A DNA stretch of 64,000 bases. Source: an uncultured virus (IMG/VR IMGVR_UViG_2029527006_000008). Lineage: Duplodnaviria > Heunggongvirae > Uroviricota > Caudoviricetes. Made by a program: the position numbers and the translations under genes. Under the pieces are notes generated by a model, which worked only from the letters and a program-made list of their open reading frames with translations, did not search any database and had not been told where the DNA came from. The stretch spans positions 62,001 to 126,000 of the IMG/VR virus record IMGVR_UViG_2029527006_000008; one strand, written 5' to 3'. Numbering within the stretch: the stretch's first letter is position 1; every line of letters begins with the position of its first letter. Of the stretch, positions 6,460-44,177 are shown piece after piece.

Positions 6460-8565
6460 ATGAAAAAGCCCAATCTCAAGTTGAGCAAGATCAATCAGAT
6501 GCATCCTGATTTGATCGGCGTCAACACCAACCTCAACATCATGCCATATGGTGACTCAGCGTCACGTCTCTATATGGAAGGGAACATGGTGCCGAAGTCG
6601 GTTGTGGTAAGCGGTAACAGTGAACGTTTGATTACAACGGGGTTTGAAAAACAATACGGCGATACAGCACGTTCGATTCGCTGTCCGTCTGATATGACCG
6701 TAGAAGAAGTGTTCTACGTTCAGTCAACTCGCGGTGACGGTATTCTCACCGACGGCTGGAAAGAGATCTTTGTGATCTTTAAGAACGAAGACAAGAACTA
6801 TTTCGACATTCTGGTTCTTCCTCGATTCCACACACAAAATACTTACGTTGGCTTTGAGTATGTCTACGACAAAGAGATGATGCGTCGCTTGAAGAAAGAT
6901 GCGCCATTCTCTAAAGGTGAAGAGTTCGCCCGCTCACCGCGCGTACGCTCCAGCGGAGAGTGGAACTTCGCAACTGAAACCATCGTCTGTGCTATGTCCA
7001 GTCACGCTACCGAAGAGGACGGCATTCGCATCACCGACCGCTATGCTCGTGAAAAACTGCGCTGCATGTTTAAACATGAACGTGGCTTTGAGTATAACGA
7101 AACAGACTGGATTCCTCTGAACCTTTATGGAACAGAAGACAACCCACGTCCGTTTGCTCGCCCAGGCGAAACCATTCGCGAAGACGGCATTGTTATGGGC
7201 TTCCGTCGCCGCGCTGGTTGTAACCCGCTGATCTCTTTGACTAAGAAAGGTCTGATGCAGCCGGACTACCTGTTTGACAAACTGTTCTATGCACCACCAA
7301 GCTCGGTGATGATGGACGTGATTGTTGAAGGCGAAAAGATCAAAGACCGTTCCCATAACCGCAGCACTGAGCAGATCCCTCAACAGCACAGTGAAGCGAT
7401 GCGTGAATTTGAAGCCATGCAGAATGCCTTCTACGTCGAAGTCATTAACTGGTATGAGCGTCTGATCGTGCGCATGGGTGGTCAGGAACCTGAGATCAGT
7501 TTTGAACTCGATCGTTTTGTGCGTGACGCCTACGGTAAGCACACCAAACGTAACGGTATCATCAACAACCTGGGCTACTCGTACAAGAACATTCGTCAGA
7601 AAGACTGGAAGATCACCATCCGTCTGAAAGAAGAAGTGTCGGGTCGCGTTAAGTTTAAGATGGCAGGTACCAACGGGGACAAAGGTGTTGCAGTTGATAT
7701 GATTCCGTGGCAGGACGCACCTCACTATGAGGACGGCACCTACGCCGACATCATTATTAACAACACACCGGCATTCCGTCGCCAGATCATGACCATGCTG
7801 GCCGAAGCCACCATCAACTTCATTAACCTGCAGGTTCATAAGGAAGTGATCGCACTGCGTAATGAAGGTAAGTACAAAGAAGCGTACGATCGGGTATTCA
7901 TGTTCTATGAAACAGGGTTCCCGGAGTTCGCTGAAATCGTGAAGAACGTCATGGTAACGGAAGAAGATCGTAATGAGCATGTGGATTATATCTGCAAGCA
8001 CAACATCTCGGTTCATCTCCGTTCCGATGCGAAGGTCTACGGTATTAACATTATCCGTGAACTTCGTAAGGTGTTCAAACACAAACCGCAGAAAGTGAAA
8101 TTCCGTGACGCCTTTGGCGAAATGGTGGAGTCACATTATCCGATCTTACTGACCAGCATGTACTATATGTTGTTGGATAAGTTCGGTGCAGATGACAGTT
8201 CTCAGTCTTTCCCGAAAGCCAACCCATTTGGTTTACCGGCGTCGAACAGCCAAGGTGACAAACACACCAACTGGTATATCGACAAAGGCAGCCGTAACAT
8301 CGGTGAGTCAGAAACTCGCTGGGAAACGGCACACAACGGTACAAAAGAAAACATCAAACAGTTAGCGCTGGCGAACAGTGACATCGTTCGTACCAACGCC
8401 ATCAAGCGCATTATTCGTGCTGATGATCCGTTTGAAATCGATTGCATCGTGACCGATGAGGAGATCGCCACTAACCGTGCGGTGATCATGGGATCAGAAC
8501 TGCTCAGTGACTCTGGGTATATCTTGCGTGCAGAAAAGCCTGAAGACAGGGACAATGAATTATGA
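6460..8565 (+). CDS. Non-virion RNA polymerase beta subunit, C-terminal part (phiKZ gp71-73-like)
   Basis: DSASRLYM (cf. RpoB DDANRALM), TEEDG (NFEDS), KMAGTNGDKGV (KMAGRHGNKGV), ADIIIN..AFRR (DIVLNPLGVPSR), NIGESE (RFGEME). Confidence 0.9.
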   Translation: MKKPNLKLSKINQMHPDLIGVNTNLNIMPYGDSASRLYMEGNMVPKSVVVSGNSERLITTGFEKQYGDTARSIRCPSDMTVEEVFYVQSTRGDGILTDGWKEIFVIFKNEDKNYFDILVLPRFHTQNTYVGFEYVYDKEMMRRLKKDAPFSKGEEFARSPRVRSSGEWNFATETIVCAMSSHATEEDGIRITDRYAREKLRCMFKHERGFEYNETDWIPLNLYGTEDNPRPFARPGETIREDGIVMGFRRRAGCNPLISLTKKGLMQPDYLFDKLFYAPPSSVMMDVIVEGEKIKDRSHNRSTEQIPQQHSEAMREFEAMQNAFYVEVINWYERLIVRMGGQEPEISFELDRFVRDAYGKHTKRNGIINNLGYSYKNIRQKDWKITIRLKEEVSGRVKFKMAGTNGDKGVAVDMIPWQDAPHYEDGTYADIIINNTPAFRRQIMTMLAEATINFINLQVHKEVIALRNEGKYKEAYDRVFMFYETGFPEFAEIVKNVMVTEEDRNEHVDYICKHNISVHLRSDAKVYGINIIRELRKVFKHKPQKVKFRDAFGEMVESHYPILLTSMYYMLLDKFGADDSSQSFPKANPFGLPASNSQGDKHTNWYIDKGSRNIGESETRWETAHNGTKENIKQLALANSDIVRTNAIKRIIRADDPFEIDCIVTDEEIATNRAVIMGSELLSDSGYILRAEKPEDRDNEL

Positions 8566-12131: not shown

Positions 12132-12145
12132 TTTATCACTAATCG

Positions 12146-12169
12146 GAGTAAGGGGGAAACCTCTTACTC
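12146..12169 (+). terminator. Hairpin (terminator or 5' stabiliser)
   Basis: GAGTAAGGGG-GAAA-CCTCTTACTC; no strong U-tract. Confidence 0.5.
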
Positions 12170-12184
12170 TCTACGGGAGTATGT

Positions 12185-12859
12185 ATGTCAGAACAATTTT
12201 CGCAACAAGTTATGGACCAGATCAAAACCTTTATCAACGAGCGCGGTTTGAAGACTGGCGTGCCGTCGGACATTGCTCACTACATCGCCGAGCAGGTGCC
12301 GGCTGGCCAGGTCCGTATCCAGGATGAAAGTTGGGGTGAACCTGACAAGTGGATCTACCGCGGCCCGGTAGACGCTGAGAGCGACGACGTGCTCTGCTAT
12401 GGCTGGCGGGTCATGCAGAAGGGCAAAGAGTCTGAGCGCTATGAACGTGACCTGCACGATATGATCGGACCACGTTGGACGGTGGAAATCCTGTCTGCTG
12501 AAGACAACCTCAACTTGCCGAAAACCAAACCGGGTAAAGAAACCAAATCAGAGCGGGAATCTCACGAGGCCCTCGAGCAAACCTTTACTCCGTCTGATGA
12601 CGTTGGTACCAAGATCGTTGACCAAACTTACGGCCAGGTCAACGACGCTATCTTTGCCGCTATGCCGGGTACACTGGCTATTCGCTGTGAAGACTGGAAC
12701 AACGCCAACGCCTGGGTGCTGTTGGAAGAAGTTAAGGTCAAAGAAGAAAGCATGCAGGTATTGACTATTAACTACAGCAACGGTGTGAAAATGCCGTGGC
12801 ATCCGTCTATGCTGGATCTCTCCAGCAAGAACTGGACCAGCAAAAGTCCGTTAGAGTAA
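12185..12859 (+). CDS. Protein with two tandem DUF2829/Tad2-like domains (candidate anti-defence nucleotide sponge)
   Basis: C-terminal domain IRCEDWNNANAWVLL...PWHPSMLDLSSKNW. N-terminal domain RIQDESWGEPDKWIY...YERDLHDMIGPRW. Both fit the recalled R-x-x-W-N-G...W-x-P-S-x-x-D-x4-D-W signature, the N-terminal one more loosely. Confidence 0.6.
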   Translation: MSEQFSQQVMDQIKTFINERGLKTGVPSDIAHYIAEQVPAGQVRIQDESWGEPDKWIYRGPVDAESDDVLCYGWRVMQKGKESERYERDLHDMIGPRWTVEILSAEDNLNLPKTKPGKETKSERESHEALEQTFTPSDDVGTKIVDQTYGQVNDAIFAAMPGTLAIRCEDWNNANAWVLLEEVKVKEESMQVLTINYSNGVKMPWHPSMLDLSSKNWTSKSPLE

Positions 12860-12865
12860 GACGTC

Positions 12866-12892
12866 AGGGGTGTTTTCGGACACCCCTTTCTT
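12866..12892 (+). terminator. Rho-independent terminator
   Basis: AGGGGTGTT-TTCG-GACACCCCT followed by TTCTT. Confidence 0.7.
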
Positions 12893-12899
12893 CATTACT

Positions 12900-12916
12900 T
12901 TTTAATCCTATATTAC
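12900..12916 (+). promoter_or_regulatory. Putative early promoter containing TATATTAC
   Basis: TTTTAATCCTATATTAC contains the exact phiKZ early core TATATTAC with an upstream TTTAA. Confidence 0.7.
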
Positions 12917-12948: not shown

Positions 12949-13383
12949 ATGTCTACCCTTAGTCGCTTGTTGAAGAACCGTTATAAAAAGTATTACTTGG
13001 ACCTGGCCGGCATCAATGCCAGCGTTGTTCGTATGATCACCCCCATGATTCCCAATATGGAGAAGAAGGGTGAGTTCAAAGATGGCTGGACGCGAAGCTA
13101 CCCTAACCTGAACCTGGAGATCGACCACAACCCCTGTGGTTATCGTCTGGACCTGCGTAAAACCGGCGAGAAGACCTACAGCTACCGTTTACGCATTACC
13201 TTTAAGAAAGACGCACCTTTCTTCTGGGGAAGTCCACAACGCCGTCAGGACCTCACTACGCTAGTGAATCAAGAGTATAAAGAACACAAGCGTATGTTCG
13301 GCTTTTCACACAAAACCAACATCGTGACGCTGATGCAGCGCTACATCACTTTCGCAATCGAAGGCGAAATAAAACTCGACTGA
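12949..13383 (+). CDS. Hypothetical basic protein (144 aa)
   Basis: GGAG RBS before ATG 12949 (MSTLSRLL), downstream of the early motif. Confidence 0.7.
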   Translation: MSTLSRLLKNRYKKYYLDLAGINASVVRMITPMIPNMEKKGEFKDGWTRSYPNLNLEIDHNPCGYRLDLRKTGEKTYSYRLRITFKKDAPFFWGSPQRRQDLTTLVNQEYKEHKRMFGFSHKTNIVTLMQRYITFAIEGEIKLD

Positions 13384-13410: not shown

Positions 13411-13815
13411 ATGAAACAGACTATTGATCTGATCAAAATCCCACCTGGCTATACGTCTGACATTCACGAGTTCTGTTCACCAGTACTTGAAGTGGCAATG
13501 TTGCGCGGTGAAAAGGCGGGTACGTTCGATGACGATTTCTTCTATGAAGTATTGGAAACGCATCTGGCGGAAAATGAACAACGCATCATTCTGCATAACG
13601 CGCACCGTTTTCTGGAGCAAAAACTTCATTTCATGGATCGTGAGTTCGAGCCCTTCTACGAAAAGGAGTTTGAAATCGGTTGCAGACACTTCATACGAGA
13701 CTTTCTCCACATCAATCAACTTCATACCGTTAGAGGGTTAAAGAGCGACGTATGGAAGATAAGCATAAAGCCGCTGCCCGGCAATATGTGGCAGTTAACG
13801 ACGGTTGTCGGATAA
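13411..13815 (+). CDS. Hypothetical protein (134 aa)
   Basis: AGGAG RBS; operon context. Confidence 0.7.
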   Translation: MKQTIDLIKIPPGYTSDIHEFCSPVLEVAMLRGEKAGTFDDDFFYEVLETHLAENEQRIILHNAHRFLEQKLHFMDREFEPFYEKEFEIGCRHFIRDFLHINQLHTVRGLKSDVWKISIKPLPGNMWQLTTVVG

Positions 13816-14171
13816 GCCAAACTTTTACCGTCAAATATGGGTTTCCGCCTGAGCTCAACGAAGAGCAGTTGGAAGTGCTAACCACCATGGTGTTGAATCG
13901 TATAGATTCTATAGTGACACACACTTCCTTTAACCGTGACACGTTAGCTCTGGTACACGCTCACATGACTCCCAGTCGCTGGGACGAAGAGAACGGTGGT
14001 ACTGAAAACTTTTACCGCCGCGAAGCCATGATGATCGACGAAATGTTCAGTGACGTCGAGGATGATCGCGCGTATCGTTCTACTTTAGGAGATCTTGCCC
14101 GATGTCAATGCACGACGTTCAGTGTACAACTGATAACCAACAATCTGATATTTCTGGAGCTCCGGTTCTAG
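13752..14171 (+). CDS. Hypothetical protein; true start uncertain (possibly ATA at 13812)
   Basis: The ORF fills the gap between its neighbours; ATG 13752 would overlap the previous gene by 64 nt. Confidence 0.55.
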   Translation: MEDKHKAAARQYVAVNDGCRISQTFTVKYGFPPELNEEQLEVLTTMVLNRIDSIVTHTSFNRDTLALVHAHMTPSRWDEENGGTENFYRREAMMIDEMFSDVEDDRAYRSTLGDLARCQCTTFSVQLITNNLIFLELRF

Positions 14172-14182
14172 GCGAAACCGTA

Positions 14183-14485
14183 ATGAACATGATGTTACAG
14201 ATGTACCATCGTGCCAAGAAAGAGTTTTTCTTCCCTACCAGTCTGAAAACCAAAGAAGTTAAAACGGTTGAAGGCATCGCCGGCGGCGCCAAGATCGTGT
14301 TAACGCTCTGGGCAGGTCGCAGCGCGCGTCACGGCATGGAAGAGATGTGCTGTCGTATTAAAGTCACCCCTGAGATCGCTTGGGATGGCACTAACTTCGA
14401 GAAAGACTTCTTGCTGCATTCGCTGGCGCTGTTCAGTGACATGACTGTGAAGAGCGATCGCGACGGCATTTACTACGTTTGGTAA
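14183..14485 (+). CDS. Hypothetical protein (100 aa)
   Basis: ATG 14183 follows the stop at 14171; phage-like codon usage; a terminator follows. Confidence 0.65.
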   Translation: MNMMLQMYHRAKKEFFFPTSLKTKEVKTVEGIAGGAKIVLTLWAGRSARHGMEEMCCRIKVTPEIAWDGTNFEKDFLLHSLALFSDMTVKSDRDGIYYVW

Positions 14486-14919: not shown

Positions 14920-15801
14920 ATGCCTAACAAAGATTATGAAGCCGCTTTGAAAGAGTTCCAATCAACCCATAACCAAGTGAGCGACCTGCTGACACCGGTT
15001 GAATACGCACGCTATCAGATATTGAGTTATCCTGACAACGTATCCATCCTGAACACAGCACTGAAGAAAAAATTAGCACTCGATCCTGAGTATGAAGTAT
15101 GGGTGCCGATCCACTACTATAAGTATCTGGTACTGGACACGGCGAAAGGTGTCTCTACGTTCTACACGAAGTACGCGTTCATTAGTAACAAAGGCAATAT
15201 CCACCACATCCGTAAGAAAACCAAGGCGCCACAGGGCCATACCACTCAGAGCGGACATCAGAGCTCACTGGTACGTTTAATTGATGGCCCGGTTCGCTTC
15301 TCGTTACACCGCGCAGTTGCTTGCAGCTTCATCCCCCTGCCAGAGAAGTTTAAACATGTTGGTCACGGCTACGCACAGGTTAAGCACCTTGATAGCGATA
15401 AAGCCCACAACGACTTCCTGAACCTGACATGGGACTCAAGCGTAGTCGAGCAAGAGAAAGACCTGCCGTCGAATGTTACCCAATCAGCCATTCATCATGA
15501 CCATTATGGCATCCGTCCATTAATGGGTGAAGTCATCATCCCTGGCGAACACTTAGGTGTACGTTTCATCCGCTCTGGCGATCGCGAGATCACAGACCTG
15601 CTGGGGACCTCTGGCCTGGTTGACATCGACGAAGTCCTGCGTAACAAGGTGAAAGAAGTGAACGGCATTCGCTGGACGCCTGCCACCGATTCCGATGTTA
15701 TTGTCTATGGTACTTCTGTCATTCCGACTTCGCTGGTTCGTATCCTCAGATCTTATCGCGATAACGGCAGTAATCGTGCCGCTGGTTCTATTCGTGTTTA
15801 A
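14920..15801 (+). CDS. HNH homing-endonuclease-like protein (NUMOD4/HNH type), probably degenerate
   Basis: FISNKGN, LHRAVACSFIP, VKHLDSDKAHNDFLNLTW; TAAGGA RBS. Confidence 0.7.
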   Translation: MPNKDYEAALKEFQSTHNQVSDLLTPVEYARYQILSYPDNVSILNTALKKKLALDPEYEVWVPIHYYKYLVLDTAKGVSTFYTKYAFISNKGNIHHIRKKTKAPQGHTTQSGHQSSLVRLIDGPVRFSLHRAVACSFIPLPEKFKHVGHGYAQVKHLDSDKAHNDFLNLTWDSSVVEQEKDLPSNVTQSAIHHDHYGIRPLMGEVIIPGEHLGVRFIRSGDREITDLLGTSGLVDIDEVLRNKVKEVNGIRWTPATDSDVIVYGTSVIPTSLVRILRSYRDNGSNRAAGSIRV

Positions 15802-15819
15802 GCACTGATGACAAGTTTC

Positions 15820-15843
15820 TCCCTGCTCCTCCGGGGGCAGGGG
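15820..15843 (+). other. Intergenic GC hairpin between the HNH paralogs
   Basis: CCCTGCTCC-TCCG-GGGGCAGGG; the stem extends with flanking AAGTT/AACTT. Confidence 0.55.
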
Positions 15844-15882
15844 CAACTTATCCTTTGGTTACCCAACCCAGGAGATATGATA

Positions 15883-17271
15883 ATGAATGCGAAACAATAT
15901 AACAGTGAATTCAAGAAATTCATCAAGAACCATAACCAACTTTCAGATTTACTCACAGCCGAAGACTTACAGCGTTATCACCAACTTGACTTCCCCGATA
16001 ACGTGCAGATCGTCCACGACGCGCTGATAGAGAAGCTGAAAGAAGACCCCGACTACGAGGTCTGGGTTCCGGTTCGTTACTTCAAGTACCTGCTGTTGAA
16101 CACGGTGACGGGTGTTAAAGAGTTTTACACCAAGTACGCCTTTATCAGCAACAAGGGCAACCTCTACCATTTGCGCAAAACCCCGCAGCTGGACGTCAAA
16201 GAAAATGATGACGAATATCAGCAGAGCGTAGTGCAGCTCACCGATGGTTCCGTTAACTTCTCGGTGAACCGTGCGGTAGCAACCAGCTTTGTCCCGCTAC
16301 CCAAGGACCTCAAAGCTTACGGTTACTATGCGCTGGAAGTCAAGCACAAAAACGACCGCAAGGGCGACAACGATTTCCGCAACCTCGAATGGTTCGCGGG
16401 CAATCAGAACGACCAGACCGTGGTGGATGTCCCTAATGTGGTTCAAACGGTTAGGGAAGATAAACCTGTGCTGAACGTGACGAGCACCGACGATCGTACC
16501 GGCGAGTTGCTTTCTATTAATAGCAAGCCTTCTTCCGGTGAACACCCTGAGCAGTACCACATTCGTCCGATTATCCTGGAAGTCATGATTCCAGGCGATT
16601 ACTACGGCGTGCGGCTGATTCGTTCTTCGCCGAAGGAACTGGATGATCTGCTCGGTCCTGGTATGGCGTCTGCAGCAGAACACGCGGCTAACCTGAACCT
16701 TACGGTATACGGTTGTCGTTGGAGCTATGCGACCAACGATGAGGTCGCTCAGTATGGTGCATTGCGTGTACCGGCTAAGCTTCGTGCGTTACTGCATGAA
16801 TATGCGGCGGGTCACTGCATGAACATTCTGGGAACCCGTGTGGCTGACGGACACATGATCCTGATTGAAGGGGATCCGTTAGAGACAGAACATCTGGGAT
16901 TAAACTATTCCGATATTCTGAAAGTGTGCGATGGGGAGAAAGAAGCCCACAAGGGTTATACTTTCCGTCGGGTTGACGAAGAAGAGATGCTGCAGCTTCG
17001 TACTGCTATTGACCTTCAAACAACCCAGACGTTCCCGCAGGAGGCGCCTGTAGTGAATTTCATTATGGGAAAGCGGATCTCGGATGGACACCTTATTTTG
17101 TTTTGCACGGATCAAGAGATTGAGTTACTGGGATGGGATCCCAAGCTCGTCAACAAAGCCGCGCGTAAACGAGGTGTTCCCGTGTACGGCTATGAGTTCG
17201 AACGCGTTACCGATGATCTTACCGCGCTGAACTTACGTAACCTGATTGCCACACAGATCACCCAATTCTAA
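15883..17271 (+). CDS. HNH-like paralog with C-terminal NUMOD1-like DNA-binding repeats
   Basis: The N-terminal ~170 aa are clearly homologous to the 14920 gene (DPDYEVWVP, FYTKYAFISNKGN, VKHKNDRKGDNDFRNLEW). Repeats ILKVCDGEKEAHKGYTFRR and VNKAARKRGVPVYGYEFER. AGGAG RBS before ATG 15883. Confidence 0.7.
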   Translation: MNAKQYNSEFKKFIKNHNQLSDLLTAEDLQRYHQLDFPDNVQIVHDALIEKLKEDPDYEVWVPVRYFKYLLLNTVTGVKEFYTKYAFISNKGNLYHLRKTPQLDVKENDDEYQQSVVQLTDGSVNFSVNRAVATSFVPLPKDLKAYGYYALEVKHKNDRKGDNDFRNLEWFAGNQNDQTVVDVPNVVQTVREDKPVLNVTSTDDRTGELLSINSKPSSGEHPEQYHIRPIILEVMIPGDYYGVRLIRSSPKELDDLLGPGMASAAEHAANLNLTVYGCRWSYATNDEVAQYGALRVPAKLRALLHEYAAGHCMNILGTRVADGHMILIEGDPLETEHLGLNYSDILKVCDGEKEAHKGYTFRRVDEEEMLQLRTAIDLQTTQTFPQEAPVVNFIMGKRISDGHLILFCTDQEIELLGWDPKLVNKAARKRGVPVYGYEFERVTDDLTALNLRNLIATQITQF

Positions 17272-17324: not shown

Positions 17325-18623
17325 TTATCGGAACGCTTGATCCCAAGCCACTTTACTGTTCGACGTACCAGAGATGTGACTCGCCTTCATACGAAGAAGC
17401 ATAAAGACGGTCGCTGTGCGCGATACTGCTGCGGGTAAACGAGTAGCGGTCGCACCCAAGCCTTTACCTGCACAGGTCTTACAGTAGTCACCTTCACCAG
17501 TCAAGCAGAACTGCATCGCACGCATGGGAACAACTTTACCCTCATACTTGCTCCAGTTATCGTTGGTCAGCATTATGTCCTTGCCGTTGTCGATAACAAA
17601 GCAACCCAACCACAGTTTCTTGTTGGTTGGCCAGAGCATAATGAGTTCACCCTGCTTGCTACCACAGTTCTCTTCGACCACGCGCTTGGAGCCCATGATG
17701 CGCAGGATGTCTTTAACCCTTGCACCACCTTCACCCGTAGCTTTACCACGGTTGTATGCGCCTTCGATCGCGGTGTTGATGTAGTCCACCATGTGACGTG
17801 GATCCCAGCCTTTGGTCAGTGGATCAACCAGTGGTACCCAGCTGTTGGTTTCAGAGTTGAACTCGATACCAAACATAATGAACATACGTTTACGACAGTT
17901 GCTGACGTAGCTCTTGTCGATGTAGAACGTAGCCGACTCACCCTTCATCTGGATCTCATAATCCAGGTTAACGCACTGTTCAACGATGTCGTTGAATACC
18001 AGTGGGTCAGAGAGACGATCTTTGTTCTCTTTCAACAGGCGATTCTTGAGGTCGATAACCTCTTTGGAAACCGTCAAAGAATCTTTGGAGCCGCACTTCA
18101 CGATGGCGTAAAGAATACCTTCCAGGAAGTTAGCATTCTTGGAGATCTTTAATACGTCACGAACCGGCGCCTTACCTTCAGGAACCGATTCACCTTCAGG
18201 CGGGTCATCCACCATGATGTCACTGATCCAGTCACGAATCAAACCTGGGGTGAGTTCACGGTTCTGATAGGGAATGACATGACCCACAGCTTCATAGAAC
18301 ATCACCACGTTAAACAGGAAGATGCCAAACGTACTTTTCACCGCCTGCCCCTGTAACACAGGATGGAAGTCAGCAGTGAGGTCAATGGTGTCGGCCATGT
18401 TAAACACCGGTTCCAACACATCGCCTTCCAACGTTTGAACGTTACCTTCATGATCGTGGAACTTAAAGCTGTTGCCCTCAATCCATACCGCATAGGGGTG
18501 TGGAGAGAGAATGGCTTTCGACTCTTCGTCTTCAAAGCCAATAGTACAAACAGAAAGCAACCACTCTTTGCGCTTGTAAGCACGATGAGCAAAGGCTTCC
18601 CGTAAGAAATCAAACTTATTCAC
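17325..18623 (-). CDS. Virion RNA polymerase beta' middle subunit (phiKZ gp80-like)
   Basis: Bridge-helix-like GAYNRGKATGEGGARVK; zinc site MRAMQFC..GDYCKTCAG; trigger-like MKASH. Confidence 0.85.
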   Translation of the reverse strand: MNKFDFLREAFAHRAYKRKEWLLSVCTIGFEDEESKAILSPHPYAVWIEGNSFKFHDHEGNVQTLEGDVLEPVFNMADTIDLTADFHPVLQGQAVKSTFGIFLFNVVMFYEAVGHVIPYQNRELTPGLIRDWISDIMVDDPPEGESVPEGKAPVRDVLKISKNANFLEGILYAIVKCGSKDSLTVSKEVIDLKNRLLKENKDRLSDPLVFNDIVEQCVNLDYEIQMKGESATFYIDKSYVSNCRKRMFIMFGIEFNSETNSWVPLVDPLTKGWDPRHMVDYINTAIEGAYNRGKATGEGGARVKDILRIMGSKRVVEENCGSKQGELIMLWPTNKKLWLGCFVIDNGKDIMLTNDNWSKYEGKVVPMRAMQFCLTGEGDYCKTCAGKGLGATATRLPAAVSRTATVFMLLRMKASHISGTSNSKVAWDQAFR

Positions 18624-19568: not shown

Positions 19569-20273
19569 ATGACCAAGAAATTAAGCAGCAAAATGCAGGC
19601 CAAGCACTTAAAGAAACGTAGCGAACGTGCCGCCAAGAAAAGCGCACCGAAAACCGAAACAGCTCAGGCACGTATTCGTCGCGAACGTCTTGAACGCTAT
19701 ACCAATGGCGCCGTAGCTGGTCTGCTGGCGCGCGGACAGGTGATTAATGGTCGTGAACTCTCGATTGATGAAGTCATGAAAATGATTAATCACACCATCG
19801 AAGTTGACGCCGGTGTTGGGTCTGTGGTTGAAACCATGGAGATCCTGGAGCGCGAAGGCAAGTTGGTGATCTCCGAAGAGCTGCGCGCTACCATCGACCA
19901 GTTTGATGAAGACGTGGTGAAGTTCAACGAAAACGCCCAAACCATCAGCATTGTGCTGCAAGGCGAAAACAACCTGCTGGGGCTGCCGCCGGAACTGTTG
20001 ATGGATACCGGCTTCCGCTCTGAACGTCTGATCACTGAAATCTGTCCGAAAATCATGGCAGAAGCCACACCGTTCACCGAACTGGTAAACACCTACCAGA
20101 AAGAACACTATCCGCAACAGAACTACCGCAAGGTAATGTTCAACGTTGCCCTTACTCGCCTGGCGCGCATCACGCCTAAGTACGCTACGCCGGCTAACGT
20201 CGACGCAGAAGAAGTACTGGGTGACGAAGCTGCTGAAGCGCACGCTGTACTGAACGATAAAGAGGAAGCATAA
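19569..20273 (+). CDS. Hypothetical protein with a basic N-terminus
   Basis: ATG 19569 after GAGAG; biased codons; TAATG coupling to the next gene. Confidence 0.7.
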   Translation: MTKKLSSKMQAKHLKKRSERAAKKSAPKTETAQARIRRERLERYTNGAVAGLLARGQVINGRELSIDEVMKMINHTIEVDAGVGSVVETMEILEREGKLVISEELRATIDQFDEDVVKFNENAQTISIVLQGENNLLGLPPELLMDTGFRSERLITEICPKIMAEATPFTELVNTYQKEHYPQQNYRKVMFNVALTRLARITPKYATPANVDAEEVLGDEAAEAHAVLNDKEEA

Positions 20274-22000
20274 TGTCTGACAACCTGGAAGAGCGCATGG
20301 CAGCTGCTGCAGCCGAGCACCAGAACACACCCGCGCCTGCACCGAAAAAGCCGGTAACGCCGCAAGACGTGCAAACTGCGGATACCACGCTGGCGCATGA
20401 AATCCTGAAGCCGAAGTCGCAGGCTCAAGGTCAGTTCGACATGAACGATCCTAACCAGACCTGGGTCAATGGTTTTATCGGTCTGAACAAAGAATCCTAC
20501 GAACGTGTGGGTAATGAGCAAGAGCTGTGGCAGAATTACACCGCCGCCAAGCAGATGGCTCAGATGAATGACAAGCAGTTGCAGAAAGAAGGCATTACTC
20601 GCAGTCAGATTCAGGCGCAGATCGCCGCCTGGGAAGAGTACGTTGCAGAACGCATGCCGGACATCGATCTCAAAGAAGCCGACGCGCGTCAGATGACCAT
20701 CTATTCCTTTATTACCAATCTGGGTGATCCTCTGCTGCTGCACTATCCGGTTGTGCGCGAGCCGGGTCTGACCAACCAGATGCAACGCACCACTGATATC
20801 GCCACCGGTGACATCAACGGTCTGGTGCCGAGTCGTGATCGTGGTACTTTTAAACTCAGTGAATACATGCGCCGTACTTCGCTGAGCGTCAGTAATGACC
20901 CGTACAACTACGATCTGCTGCTGCGCAACTCCTACATGGCGTTCCGCTATGCCAAGCCTGGTCGTCTGGAAGCTGGTGAGCTGATTGACAAAATTGCACG
21001 TTCAGTGCGTGGCCACGTGCGTACGGTTTCCCAGAACCTGCCTGCGCTGGCCAACATCGCCGCCATTCGTGTGGTGTGGCAGTTCATCCGTGACAAAATC
21101 ATTATGTGCAGCGTCAAAGACACTTCTGACTTCGACGAGCTGGCAGACGTGATTCGCATCACGGACATCAACACCATGGCGTGTTCGCTGCTGGAACTGT
21201 TCTACCCGCACGGGGTTAACTTCAACCTGCGCTGCCTGGGTTCAGAAAGCTGCGACTGGACCCGTCAGGACGTCATTGACCCAACCCTGTTGGTGATTGA
21301 CCGTAAATGGCTGGATACACCGGAAGAGTCTGCGGCTTACGCCAACATGATGAACTTCTCTCGCAAGTATTCTCGCGAAGAGTCGCTGGAGTTCATTGAC
21401 AAGGCGGACTTCAAGCACGAGATCGAACCGGTGTGGAACGAAAACCGTAGCGCTTGCTTCATCCTTGGCGTACCGTCGCTGACAGAAAGCTTTGAAGCAG
21501 AAGCCTTCTTCAGTGATGTGGTGCAGAAAGAGCTGAACAAGATCCGTGAACAGGCGATGACCGAAGAAGAGTATTTCGGTAAACGCGAAGAGTTCCTGAA
21601 CGGTCTGGTGGGGACGGACTACCTGCACTATGTGGCTGAATACCGCATCATGCCGCCGGCAAACACCGATGGTCAGCCGGTGATCATTCGTCGTCGTGAA
21701 CAAGACCCTACGCAGTTTAACCAGGGTATTATGGACATCATCATGGATAACGACGTGATGGCGACCAACCTGGTACAGGCCGTGATCAAGCACTATCCGT
21801 TCATGTCCAAAACGTTTGTGGGTCTGGCGAACTACGCGTGTGAGAAATGTGGTAGTCATTCGGATGCGTACGATGACCTGGGTTATACGCCTATCAACAT
21901 CATGTCGGCGTTTTTTACCCTGGCCAACCTGACGTATACTGGACGGTCGAAGGTTGGCGAGAATGCAAGGCAAGAAGCCCTCTCGGCACTTTCTCAATAG
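20273..22000 (+). CDS. Conserved protein with Cys pairs, possible baseplate-hub assembly chaperone (T4 gp26-like; phiKZ gp77-like)
   Basis: 575 aa; DINTMACSLLELFYPHGV..CLGSESC and a C-terminal CEKC. Confidence 0.45.
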   Translation: MSDNLEERMAAAAAEHQNTPAPAPKKPVTPQDVQTADTTLAHEILKPKSQAQGQFDMNDPNQTWVNGFIGLNKESYERVGNEQELWQNYTAAKQMAQMNDKQLQKEGITRSQIQAQIAAWEEYVAERMPDIDLKEADARQMTIYSFITNLGDPLLLHYPVVREPGLTNQMQRTTDIATGDINGLVPSRDRGTFKLSEYMRRTSLSVSNDPYNYDLLLRNSYMAFRYAKPGRLEAGELIDKIARSVRGHVRTVSQNLPALANIAAIRVVWQFIRDKIIMCSVKDTSDFDELADVIRITDINTMACSLLELFYPHGVNFNLRCLGSESCDWTRQDVIDPTLLVIDRKWLDTPEESAAYANMMNFSRKYSREESLEFIDKADFKHEIEPVWNENRSACFILGVPSLTESFEAEAFFSDVVQKELNKIREQAMTEEEYFGKREEFLNGLVGTDYLHYVAEYRIMPPANTDGQPVIIRRREQDPTQFNQGIMDIIMDNDVMATNLVQAVIKHYPFMSKTFVGLANYACEKCGSHSDAYDDLGYTPINIMSAFFTLANLTYTGRSKVGENARQEALSALSQ

Positions 22001-42031: not shown

Positions 42032-43444
42032 ATGGAAGGGGTTACTATATTTAAATTACTTAATTTAGTTATTAGTTTAAGTAATGATGAGAGAGCCATT
42101 ATTGGTACTCATGAGATGTTTAATAATGTTCGTGATATTATCAAGAAAGATGCAGATTATATCAACGTAGAAGATGAGAAGGTGTGTAAGCAACAACTCA
42201 CTTCACTGATCTGTATTACCGCTGATAATGCACTGGATTATTTAACAGGATTACAACACACCAACAAAGGTATTAGCAATTATCTTCAGAACATCATTGA
42301 GTCAAACAAGCTCATTGATCCGATCAAAGCTTCGGCAACGATCTGTGCACTGGGGAATGCTGATCTTACCTACACTGAACGTTTAGGGCTGGATGTGTTG
42401 AAGTCGGCACTGGTTGAACTCAAAGACATGTACTGTTTGTTTGTCAATGAGGGCAAAGACTACAACGCGCTGAATGAGGCTGCTGACCGCTTAGTGTTCT
42501 TGGCTACGCTGGCACAAATCGTCTGCACCTTCATGATCTCCAAGTACGGAAGTGAAGTGGGTGTTGGTGAACATTTTGGCTGCAACGTCAAAGAGGTTCC
42601 TACAGATCTCTCTGCCAAAGACACCGATCACACTGAAAGCTTTGAACCGGATGAAGTAGAAGGCACAGAGCAGCTCGATCACTTTGCCACCATGCTGCAG
42701 GGGCTTGAAGAATTTCATGCAGCTGGGGGCTATGTGTCGACGGAACAGCAGAGCTATGCCCAACGTTACCTGATGGGCGTCATGATGAGTCGCGGCATTA
42801 TCTCTGATCGTATCGATGGCAATGAAGGTGCGGTATGGGATAAAGTCAAAGCTGCTATGCTGAAAGCGTTCCAGGTTGTCAAAGACGGTTTGGTGGCGAT
42901 CAAGGAAAACTACTTCGATAAGTCGTTGCAGGAAATGGCTGACGACATCAAAGAAGCTTCCGAAGCCAACAAGAAAGCCCTCGCTGCAGTAGAGCAGAAA
43001 GACGCTACCTTAACTGACAGCGCAAAAGCAGGCATCGAGCGTCTGGCAGCAGCTACCAATAACGACGGCGTGAAAACAGCAGTGGGCTCTTTGACCACCG
43101 TAAGTTCAGCTCCGGGTGTTATTGACAAGCTCATGACTGAATTCACCACGGTATTCAACAAAGGCACTGAATTAGAGAAAACCTTTAACGAGGTGGATTC
43201 TGATCTCAAAGCACTGGAAAGCAGTGTCAGTGGCGACGTACCTGCGGACGGTGATAAAGAAGCCATCAGTGTGAAGAAAGCTGCTATCACTGAAAAATCA
43301 AAAGAAACCCGTGAGAAGTTTGACAGCCTGAAGAAAGAGTTAGCGGATCAACGTAAAGTCGCTGGCGCAATTGTCAAGGCAATCAAAGGCATTACTCCGG
43401 GTATCTTCTATGCGGAGAAGAAAGAAGGTGCAAGCGATGAGTAA
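42032..43444 (+). CDS. Internal head protein with a long propeptide (paralog of the 40962 gene)
   Basis: GGAGG RBS; EGTE, QGLE and DGNE sites. SYAQRYLMGVM..DGNEGAVWDKVK aligns with SYAVKYLAGAM..HGNESVWTSVK. Confidence 0.7.
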   Translation: MEGVTIFKLLNLVISLSNDERAIIGTHEMFNNVRDIIKKDADYINVEDEKVCKQQLTSLICITADNALDYLTGLQHTNKGISNYLQNIIESNKLIDPIKASATICALGNADLTYTERLGLDVLKSALVELKDMYCLFVNEGKDYNALNEAADRLVFLATLAQIVCTFMISKYGSEVGVGEHFGCNVKEVPTDLSAKDTDHTESFEPDEVEGTEQLDHFATMLQGLEEFHAAGGYVSTEQQSYAQRYLMGVMMSRGIISDRIDGNEGAVWDKVKAAMLKAFQVVKDGLVAIKENYFDKSLQEMADDIKEASEANKKALAAVEQKDATLTDSAKAGIERLAAATNNDGVKTAVGSLTTVSSAPGVIDKLMTEFTTVFNKGTELEKTFNEVDSDLKALESSVSGDVPADGDKEAISVKKAAITEKSKETREKFDSLKKELADQRKVAGAIVKAIKGITPGIFYAEKKEGASDE

Positions 43445-44177
43445 TATCACCCCTGAAAACATCAGCAAGCTGGAAACACGCCTAGGTGGTAAGGTACTGG
43501 AGTATTTTACCTCGGGCGGTGATGAGTCTACCGTGAGCTTTGTTAACAAGCAGGGCGTTGAAACGGTAGGGGTGGTCAAGAAGATGGACCTGACTCCGCA
43601 GTTCTTGCTGTCGATGCCCACTGTCAAACTGGAGAAAGGCGCAACCTATGCCCAGGCTATTGCTGCGTTCTCTCAACAGTTTGGTTTAGGCTTGATTCGT
43701 AACGTGGACTACAAGGCCACTGACGATGCCATTGTGTTCAACGGCAACCTGCTGGGACAGGCCACGCTAACGATCCTTAATAACTCCTACCTCTACAAAG
43801 GTTCGGTCACGATTCGTGTGGTAACCGAAGCAGGCGGGAAGTTAATCGACAGCATGCAGTCACTGGGCAAGACTTTTCAGCTTATCTTTTTCCAAGGTAT
43901 CCTGAGTGCGTCTAAACCGTTCCAGGGCAAGGGCAAAGCCTTTAATGGTAACCAACTGTCCCCTGAATTGGTCGACGCAGTTAAAGCCCGTCTGAGTACG
44001 TCTCCTTACGTCACAAAAGACAATATCAACATTCTGCGCAATGCCACGGTGTTTAAATACCAGACGTATCGCAAAGAGGGGGAAGAAGGTGTGGTGCGGG
44101 TTTACCTGCGCGACGCCAACCGTAACCTGTTGAGTCTGGCCGTGGTTCCGCAAGACAGTGACGATCGTCCCTTTTAA
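43437..44177 (+). CDS. Virion structural protein
   Basis: AAGG RBS before ATG 43437; QQFGLGL...NNSYLYKGSVTIRV motif typical of jumbo-phage virion paralogs. Confidence 0.6.
   Translation: MSNITPENISKLETRLGGKVLEYFTSGGDESTVSFVNKQGVETVGVVKKMDLTPQFLLSMPTVKLEKGATYAQAIAAFSQQFGLGLIRNVDYKATDDAIVFNGNLLGQATLTILNNSYLYKGSVTIRVVTEAGGKLIDSMQSLGKTFQLIFFQGILSASKPFQGKGKAFNGNQLSPELVDAVKARLSTSPYVTKDNINILRNATVFKYQTYRKEGEEGVVRVYLRDANRNLLSLAVVPQDSDDRPF

Follow-up and report, generated by a model that had tools for sequence, protein, structure and literature searches.

The DNA considered here is a stretch of 64,000 nucleotides (hereafter the window) from the uncultured virus record IMGVR_UViG_2029527006_000008, and the subject of the analysis is a gene whose product carries two Tad2-like domains in a single chain, Tad2 (DUF2829) being a family of phage sponges for immune signals. 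The locus reads, in order, helicase gene, tandem Tad2 gene, four small open reading frames (ORFs), two HNH endonuclease genes and an RNA polymerase subunit gene on the reverse strand; this order recurs in the related contigs, of which only L002/L010, L009 and L003/L011 were located (contigs of up to 223-243 kb). The gene and the parts of its product are laid out as follows:

12175..12179, plus strand: GGGAG resembling a Shine-Dalgarno sequence, 5 nt from the start codon (ATG at 12185), as read from the sequence
12185..12859, plus strand: tandem Tad2-like coding sequence, 224 aa, ATG start
12185..12256, plus strand: N-terminal extension, residues 1-24 (helix 7-19, strand start 21-26)
12257..12490, plus strand: N-terminal, diverged Tad2-like domain, residues 25-102, supported by profile alignment (hhalign) with the C half of the same chain and by structure matches
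12494..12610, plus strand: charged linker, residues 104-142
12611..12847, plus strand: C-terminal, canonical Tad2/DUF2829 domain, residues 143-221, supported by the PF11195 match and by VIA-align

The first-pass annotation of this DNA had described an ORF with two motif-bearing halves separated by a charged linker, and the translation matches it exactly: the N half contains R44-x5-W50, W56-I57 and Y86-ERDLH-D92-MIGPR-W98, and the C half R167-x3-W171, W177-V178 and W205-HPSML-D211-LSSKN-W217. The linker, rich in lysine and glutamate over residues ~104-142, is disordered in the AlphaFold2 model of the full-length protein (predicted local distance difference test score (pLDDT) 72.2, predicted template modelling score (pTM) 0.47; pLDDT <50 for residues 114-143). 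It is also the most variable part of the protein, where the indels of the homologues are located. The two-domain family consists of six clusters among 5.8 billion proteins, with five full-length homologues of 213-227 aa, and two of the six clusters are distant from the window protein (~30% identical). An MS-x-x-F N-terminus is common to all six members, and M1, S2, F5, I13 and G21 of the N-terminal extension are invariant in the family. The GGGAG of the window gene is kept in contig L002 and replaced by AGGAG in L003.

The C-terminal half belongs to the Tad2/DUF2829 family, as judged from its Pfam match, its fold and the residues that contact the ligand. PF11195 (Tad2-like) matches residues 161-218 with 26.2 bits (gathering cut-off 25 bits, E 1.1e-5). 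Across the family, five of the six members match at E <1e-3, three of them above the cut-off (26.2, 25.3 and 31.3 bits) and two below it (22.2 and 24.0 bits), while P0005 gives no match. A profile built from the six C halves aligns with a profile of canonical Tad2 proteins at 91.8% in hhalign (E 7.4e-7), the latter having been assembled from 15 phage sequences collected for this purpose (SPO1, PaBG, Joad and twelve more). When the predicted C domain was compared with the PDB by Foldseek, the Tad2 proteins of SPO1, Myroides and Hgm came out on top, with a probability of 1.00. In VIA-align it superposes on SPO1 Tad2 (chain 8smf_H) with a Z of 10.1 and a root-mean-square deviation (rmsd) of 2.2 A over 72 of 74 residues; ten Tad2-family entries score between 9.0 and 10.1, among them ModTad2, HgmTad2/AcrIIA7 and SptTad2 at 9.0-9.9, and the next unrelated chain scores 5.2.

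SPO1 Tad2 (gp34.65; structures 8SME/8SMF/8SMG and 8WJE), the founding Thoeris anti-defence 2 sponge, holds glycocyclic ADP-ribose (gcADPR) through W25, N26, W73 and D79 according to 10.1101/2023.05.01.538930. The corresponding columns of the C domain are W171, N172, W205 and D211, and P75, S76 and W85 of SPO1 Tad2 are likewise kept, as P207, S208 and W217. The W-x-P-S-x-x-D-x5-W motif that the first-pass annotation ascribed to known Tad2 proteins is indeed present in the SPO1 protein, as W73-V-P-S-Q-T-D79-x5-W85. The closest single-domain relatives of the C domain are four metagenomic proteins of 94-111 aa (P0007, P0009, P0010 and P0011; E 2e-6 to 1e-4), which share with it the WNN and W-H-P-S-x-x-D-L motifs and a short beta2-beta3 loop; none of them matches the N half.

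The N-terminal half, for its part, very probably originated as an internal duplicate of the Tad2 domain and has since diverged. Aligned by hhalign, the profile of the N halves matches that of the C halves over residues 40-101 at 94.9% (E 4.5e-8, score 45.6), far above the scores of 100 column shuffles (mean 10.7, standard deviation 2.1, maximum 17.7), of the reversed profile (15.0) and of 18 unrelated profile pairs from the same locus (maximum 16.0). The alignment keeps the motifs in register, Y86-x5-D92-x5-W98 being paired with W205-x5-D211-x5-W217. The N halves of P0005 and P0006 retain W-x-P-[ST]-x-x-D, and those of the two most distant members read W-F-P-T-x-x-D and W-A-P-S-x-x-D.

Structure prediction points the same way. 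Folded alone, the N domain was modelled with a pLDDT of 79.3 and a pTM of 0.70, and all ten top rows of a Foldseek search of the PDB with this model are Tad2 chains (probability 0.97-0.99, TM score by target 0.54-0.67, E 0.025-0.072), the best ones being SPO1 chains. Among the 48,161 representative chains compared by VIA-align, ModTad2 (9eib_A) ranks first (Z 7.0, rmsd 3.1 A, 72 residues aligned, covering residues 25-102 of the model) and AcrIIA7/HgmTad2 (8kbi_A) second (Z 6.6, 73 residues aligned); the chains that follow score 5.6 (YopQ) and 4.9. The best matches of the N domain by this tool are thus ModTad2/MoTad2 (9EIB, 8V3E), HgmTad2/AcrIIA7 and SptTad2 (8KBI-8KBK, 8WJD). On its model the N domain has the Tad2 fold, albeit with a moderate Z, which is why we weighed this value jointly with the sequence evidence. 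A low-confidence model of the ESM Atlas, taken as a lead only, places the N part at a TM score of 0.57-0.61 and the C part at 0.69-0.78 to Tad2-like clusters. The first-pass annotation had staked its claim on a Tad2 fold in the halves and had proposed profile and fold comparisons of each: the C half is Tad2 by Pfam and fold, and the nearest solved folds of the N half are Tad2.

The pocket residues fare differently in the two halves. In the N domain, the SPO1 columns W25, N26, W73, D79 and W85 are occupied by W50, G51, Y86, D92 and W98, respectively; the tryptophan at the W50 column is present in all six N halves, and the W73 column is always aromatic (four W, two Y). The gcADPR contact set W25/N26/W73/D79 is therefore incomplete in the N domain of the window protein, where N26 is replaced by G51. 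The C halves keep the W, W and D pocket residues throughout the family, except for a tyrosine at the W73 column in P0005. The window protein is the only one of the six to carry WNN, the others having W-[EDV]-N as opposed to the W-N-[G/N] of SPO1 Tad2 and the single-domain relatives; as read from this alignment, the phosphate-contacting asparagine may have shifted by one position in the two-domain family.

Solved Tad2 proteins are homotetramers, organized as dimers of dimers, with two gcADPR pockets in which the same residues are contributed by two protomers of different dimer units. More generally, phage sponges are described in PMC12265669 as short homo-oligomers whose pockets lie between identical protomers. 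SPO1 Tad2 is such a protein, an 89-aa single-domain homotetramer, whereas the window protein combines two diverged domains in one chain of 224 aa. A further difference is that neither window domain has the SPO1 beta2-beta3 loop, which together with helix alpha2 makes up the V-shaped interface of the SPO1 dimer. By analogy with the solved homotetramers, we consider it rather likely that the window protein is a single-chain tandem Tad2 that acts as a pseudo-tetrameric sponge for a TIR-derived signal of the ADP-ribose type, and thereby blunts Thoeris.

The mechanism that we envisage is as follows. The N-terminal domain would have arisen by internal duplication of the Tad2 domain and then diverged. 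Two chains, each with a flexible linker of ~39 residues, would assemble into a four-domain pseudo-tetramer, in which the C domains would supply the full canonical contacts and the N domains aromatic residues together with altered polar ones; the pockets would consequently be either one canonical C-C' and one altered N-N' pocket, or two hybrid N-C pockets. The pseudo-tetramer would sequester a signal of the 3'cADPR/gcADPR class (3'cADPR, 3' cyclic ADP-ribose), possibly histidine-ADP-ribose (His-ADPR) or N7-cyclic ADP-ribose (N7-cADPR), and capture of the signal would blunt a Thoeris-type abortive defence. An ADP-ribose-derived Thoeris signal appears to be the most likely ligand class because the contacts of the C domain are intact and because the gcADPR site is judged to be conserved in ~99% of Tad2 proteins (10.1101/2023.11.15.567273).

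The ligand range of the family is wide. In 10.1101/2025.08.24.671296, 18 Tad2 homologues were assayed; the systems inhibited by one or another of them are CBASS, Pycsar and Thoeris of types I, II and IV. Tad2 members are described as binding His-ADPR, N7-cADPR, cyclic UMP (cUMP) and cyclic dinucleotides, MoTad2 binding both His-ADPR and cUMP. With ligands so varied in the family, the N domain may have acquired a new specificity. That the broken symmetry of a hetero-domain sponge creates a pocket impossible in homotetramers, through which an ADP-ribose-derived Thoeris signal and a second, possibly novel, one would be captured together, seems doubtful to us. The cyclic-dinucleotide pocket of HgmTad2 and SptTad2 is formed by a beta2-beta5 insertion of 35-41 residues (10.1101/2023.11.15.567273), which is absent from both domains of the window protein, where a short hairpin is found that has gaps even relative to the SPO1 loop. 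Because the insertion that forms this site is absent, cyclic-dinucleotide binding of the HgmTad2 type is unlikely, as judged from the alignment.

The same missing insertion bears on another explanation, namely that the protein is no signal sponge at all and acts instead as an anti-CRISPR that, like AcrIIA7, binds RNA or nucleic acid, or fulfils some other nucleotide-binding DUF2829 role unrelated to defence. AcrIIA7, a DUF2829 protein, is reported in PMC13133391 to bind tracrRNA by way of a positively charged groove of the tetramer, and structural matches to AcrIIA7 (8kbi) were obtained with both window domains. However, the window protein lacks the long HgmTad2/AcrIIA7 insertion, has its gcADPR contact residues intact in the C domain, and is acidic all along (net charge -7 for the N domain, -4 for the linker and -3 for the C domain), which is ill suited to a groove that holds nucleic acid. 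We regard this explanation as highly improbable.

Sponge domains joined in one chain have published precedents. Tad2-Acb4 (Pasteurella phage Pm86) and Tad2-Sequestin (PF21825) likewise consist of Tad2 and a second sponge domain, and it is proposed in PMC12265669 that such fusions broaden the range of signals blocked. They join unrelated folds, whereas in the window protein Tad2 is paired with another, diverged Tad2, and hetero-domain pockets could thereby form inside a single assembly of the Tad2 type. No published Tad2-Tad2 tandem, and no Tad2 in Chimalliviridae, was found in the literature, the supplementary tables of Tad2 surveys lying outside this search.

The gene itself evolves fast for its surroundings. 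The tandem Tad2 protein is 58% identical to its counterpart in L002 and 53% to that in L011, as compared with 96-97% for the helicase, 87-95% for the RNA polymerase subunits, 79-94% for the HNH genes and 63-84% for the four small ORFs, so that in the comparisons with L002, L010, L011 and L003 it is the most diverged gene of its neighborhood. Its nonsynonymous divergence (dN) is 0.34-0.37, as against 0.013-0.05 for the flanking core genes, and reaches 0.52-0.54 in the linker. The ratio to synonymous divergence (dN/dS) in the comparison with L002 is nonetheless ~0.2 overall (0.195 for the N domain and 0.220 for the C domain), and the gene is under purifying selection; dS is raised or saturated, and its saturation against L011 leaves no ratio for the whole gene in that pair. 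A dN/dS of ~0.2, taken with high dN against a background of raised dS, indicates a gene that is constrained and yet subject to turnover or recombination much faster than its surroundings. The raised dS suggests an exchange of alleles, beyond relaxed constraint alone. We count the contrast between 53-58% and 96-97% identity, which bears the signature of an arms race, in favor of the single-chain sponge, along with the dN/dS of each domain and the variable slot in which the gene lies.

These rates and the pocket columns also bear on what the N domain does. One explanation is that a second immune signal, of a kind to which single-domain Tad2 proteins do not bind at that site, is captured by the N domain in a new pocket of its own (N-N' or N-C), so that the sponge has dual specificity and neutralizes two systems. 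The purifying selection on the N domain (dN/dS ~0.2) is in keeping with this, as is the fact that 6/6 N halves retain the W50 tryptophan and are aromatic at the W73 column while their polar contacts have changed; moreover, additional sites, for cyclic dinucleotides and for cUMP, have arisen in other Tad2 members, and proteins in which two different sponge domains are fused block two systems (PMC12265669). However, the altered polar positions are not conserved in the family, and relaxed or structural constraint fits at least equally well, so that dual specificity appears to us rather unlikely. A second explanation, which we find improbable, is that the C domains alone bind, for instance as a C4 homotetramer, and that the N domain is a degenerate partner serving as a scaffold, a solubility module or a regulatory module. 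It would be consistent with the variability that the N domain shows at its polar contact columns, with the failure of Pfam to detect that domain, and with the modelling of Tad2-Acb4 and Tad2-Sequestin with each domain as its own homotetramer (PMC12265669). It accords poorly with the pocket tryptophan present in 6/6 N halves and the motif register that has been kept, and with an N domain as constrained as the C domain in the comparison with L002 (dN/dS 0.195 versus 0.220).

Several observations weigh against the single-chain tandem Tad2 sponge, the reading that we prefer. PF11195 matches none of the six N halves, even at E up to 10, and the N halves have no match among the PDB sequences. Against an independent Tad2 profile they score at background in hhalign (14.9, E 0.069), and so they do against the 15-sequence Tad2 profile (17.6, E 0.021; 1 of 100 shuffles scored as high). 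With these independent profiles at background, the N half is linked to Tad2 by way of the C half of the same chain and of the predicted structure. The Z of 7.0 obtained for the N domain is middling by the calibration of the tool and lies 1.4 above that of YopQ (5.6). The polar contact columns are altered as well: the N halves read G/G/D/G/A/V at the N26 column and D/E/N/S/D/D at the D79 column, which means that N domains by themselves cannot make up a canonical gcADPR site, and the N26 column of the other five C halves reads E/D/D/V/E, followed by an invariant N. Finally, the pTM of 0.47 does not give the arrangement of the domains in the full-length model with confidence.

The distribution of the family is narrow. 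Every located copy of the two-domain protein lies in one clade of phiKZ-like jumbo phages. No match to the window protein was obtained when 50,697 phage records were searched by tblastn (E up to 0.01), and none by megablast with a 3-kb segment; no relative came from a pattern scan of a genome set of 185,579 species, and a locus search seeded with SPO1 Tad2 alone returned only SPO1 itself. Of 1.84 billion representative proteins, none was detected as a stand-alone relative of the N half. P0011 was the only addition from a word-indexed search in which the profile combined the single domains and C halves. Sequence searches of the PDB (phmmer and profile searches with the full-length protein, the family profile and the N-half profile) retrieved no Tad2, the matches to a Nudix protein (E 1) and a designed TIM barrel (E 2.1) being attributable to chance; PHROGs yielded only weak families of unknown function, and NCBIfam nothing. 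P0008, a repetitive protein of 1,252 aa with seven short matching stretches, was discarded as a low-complexity chance match.

Single-domain Tad2, by contrast with the narrow two-domain family, is common: the SPO1 Tad2 query matched 428 of these phage records by tblastn. Jumbo phages already have canonical Tad2: PaBG gave two matches and Joad one, all at other loci. The Tad2-like gene of Joad lies at L015 (record positions 7349-7603). PaBG has two such genes (L014 and L016), one of which encodes a protein of 216 aa with a different N-terminal half that does not look like Tad2; this protein (S5VZM3, a BFVD match) was accordingly rejected as a second tandem. Enterobacteria phage IME10 (L019, record positions 17863-18375) carries a Tad2-like frame with an extra N-terminal stretch in a region that has no annotated gene.

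The gene is bracketed by two hairpins, which the first-pass annotation had pointed out and which folding calculations bear out:

12145..12170, plus strand: upstream stem-loop immediately following the stop codon of the helicase gene (11-bp stem, GAAA loop)
12866..12905, plus strand: downstream stem-loop (12866-12887, 9-bp G+C-rich stem) with a U-rich tract

The upstream hairpin has a folding free energy (dG) of -17.5 kcal/mol (z -2.9), and none of 200 shuffles folds equally well. It is unique in the window. L002 and L003 carry the hairpin unchanged, and the upstream intergenic region as a whole is 95% identical across the relatives, as against 53-58% for the protein. No U tract follows this hairpin, which therefore is no canonical intrinsic terminator. 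The downstream hairpin (dG -16, z -3.7) has a different sequence in L003 that still pairs; with its U-rich tract, it looks like a terminator as far as the sequence can tell. Beyond it, at 12908-12916 and ~33 nt before the ATG at 12949, lies CTATATTAC, which is conserved in the window, L002 and L003. It may be a phage promoter element, possibly akin to the early promoters of phiKZ; over the window as a whole it is not enriched (2 matches, 0.9 expected). The motif TATATTAC, which we take to be that of the phiKZ early promoters, was tried as a window-wide promoter motif and rejected, being not enriched (2 matches versus 0.9 expected).

Downstream of the gene lie four small ORFs, for which Pfam and PHROGs gave no match:

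12949-13383: first small ORF
13411-13815: second small ORF
13752-14171: third small ORF
14102-14485: fourth small ORF

Like the tandem Tad2 gene, they evolve fast. They were considered as extra Tad2 copies or paralogues and rejected, their hhalign scores (8.8-16.0) being at background; no relation of these ORFs to each other or to Tad2 was detectable. Between this island and the reverse-strand RNA polymerase subunit gene sit the two adjacent HNH endonuclease genes (14920-15801 and 15808-17271; phrog_17657), the second with an I-HmuI NUMOD-like stretch; they are 79-94% identical in the relatives and look like homing endonucleases. In Joad, the corresponding slot (L012, record positions 42042-43870), also between helicase-like and RNA polymerase subunit genes, holds four unrelated small ORFs, from which it follows that the locus is a variable slot. 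This bears out the placement of the gene at the edge of an accessory island in the first-pass annotation.

The record from which the window comes comprises 126,167 bases, with a CheckV completeness of 54%. The window encodes split beta-type subunits of a multisubunit RNA polymerase (phrog_3295, phrog_3015 and phrog_2962), a DNA polymerase and a helicase, a set typical of phiKZ-like jumbo phages. Judged by one RNA polymerase subunit, the closest cultured relatives are Erwinia phages Joad and RisingSun (55% identity) and Pseudomonas phage EL (52%). No match to the nuclear shell protein gp54 of phiKZ was found in the 126-kb record, which, with the record 54% complete, carries little weight either way. 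The argument of the first-pass annotation that a phage nucleus does not block signalling-based abortive defences would apply here by analogy, its sole basis being the kinship with phiKZ-like phages. An ORF of 575 aa at 20273-22000 (phrog_4585), annotated in some records as a putative ZipA-like cell division protein, is 24-33% identical to proteins of EL-, RisingSun- and other phiKZ-like jumbo phages; BLASTP detected no similarity between it and phiKZ gp54.

The variable, fast-evolving slot between core transcription genes in this uncultured phiKZ-like clade is a likely counter-defence locus, with four further small genes beside the tandem Tad2 gene. If the reading of the latter as a single-chain sponge is true, a natural Tad2-Tad2 chain, with one conserved and one fast-diverging half, would show how gene duplication breaks the symmetry of a sponge. 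The tandem Tad2 would then be a compact test case for the evolution of sponge specificity, of all the greater interest if the N domain creates a new binding specificity.

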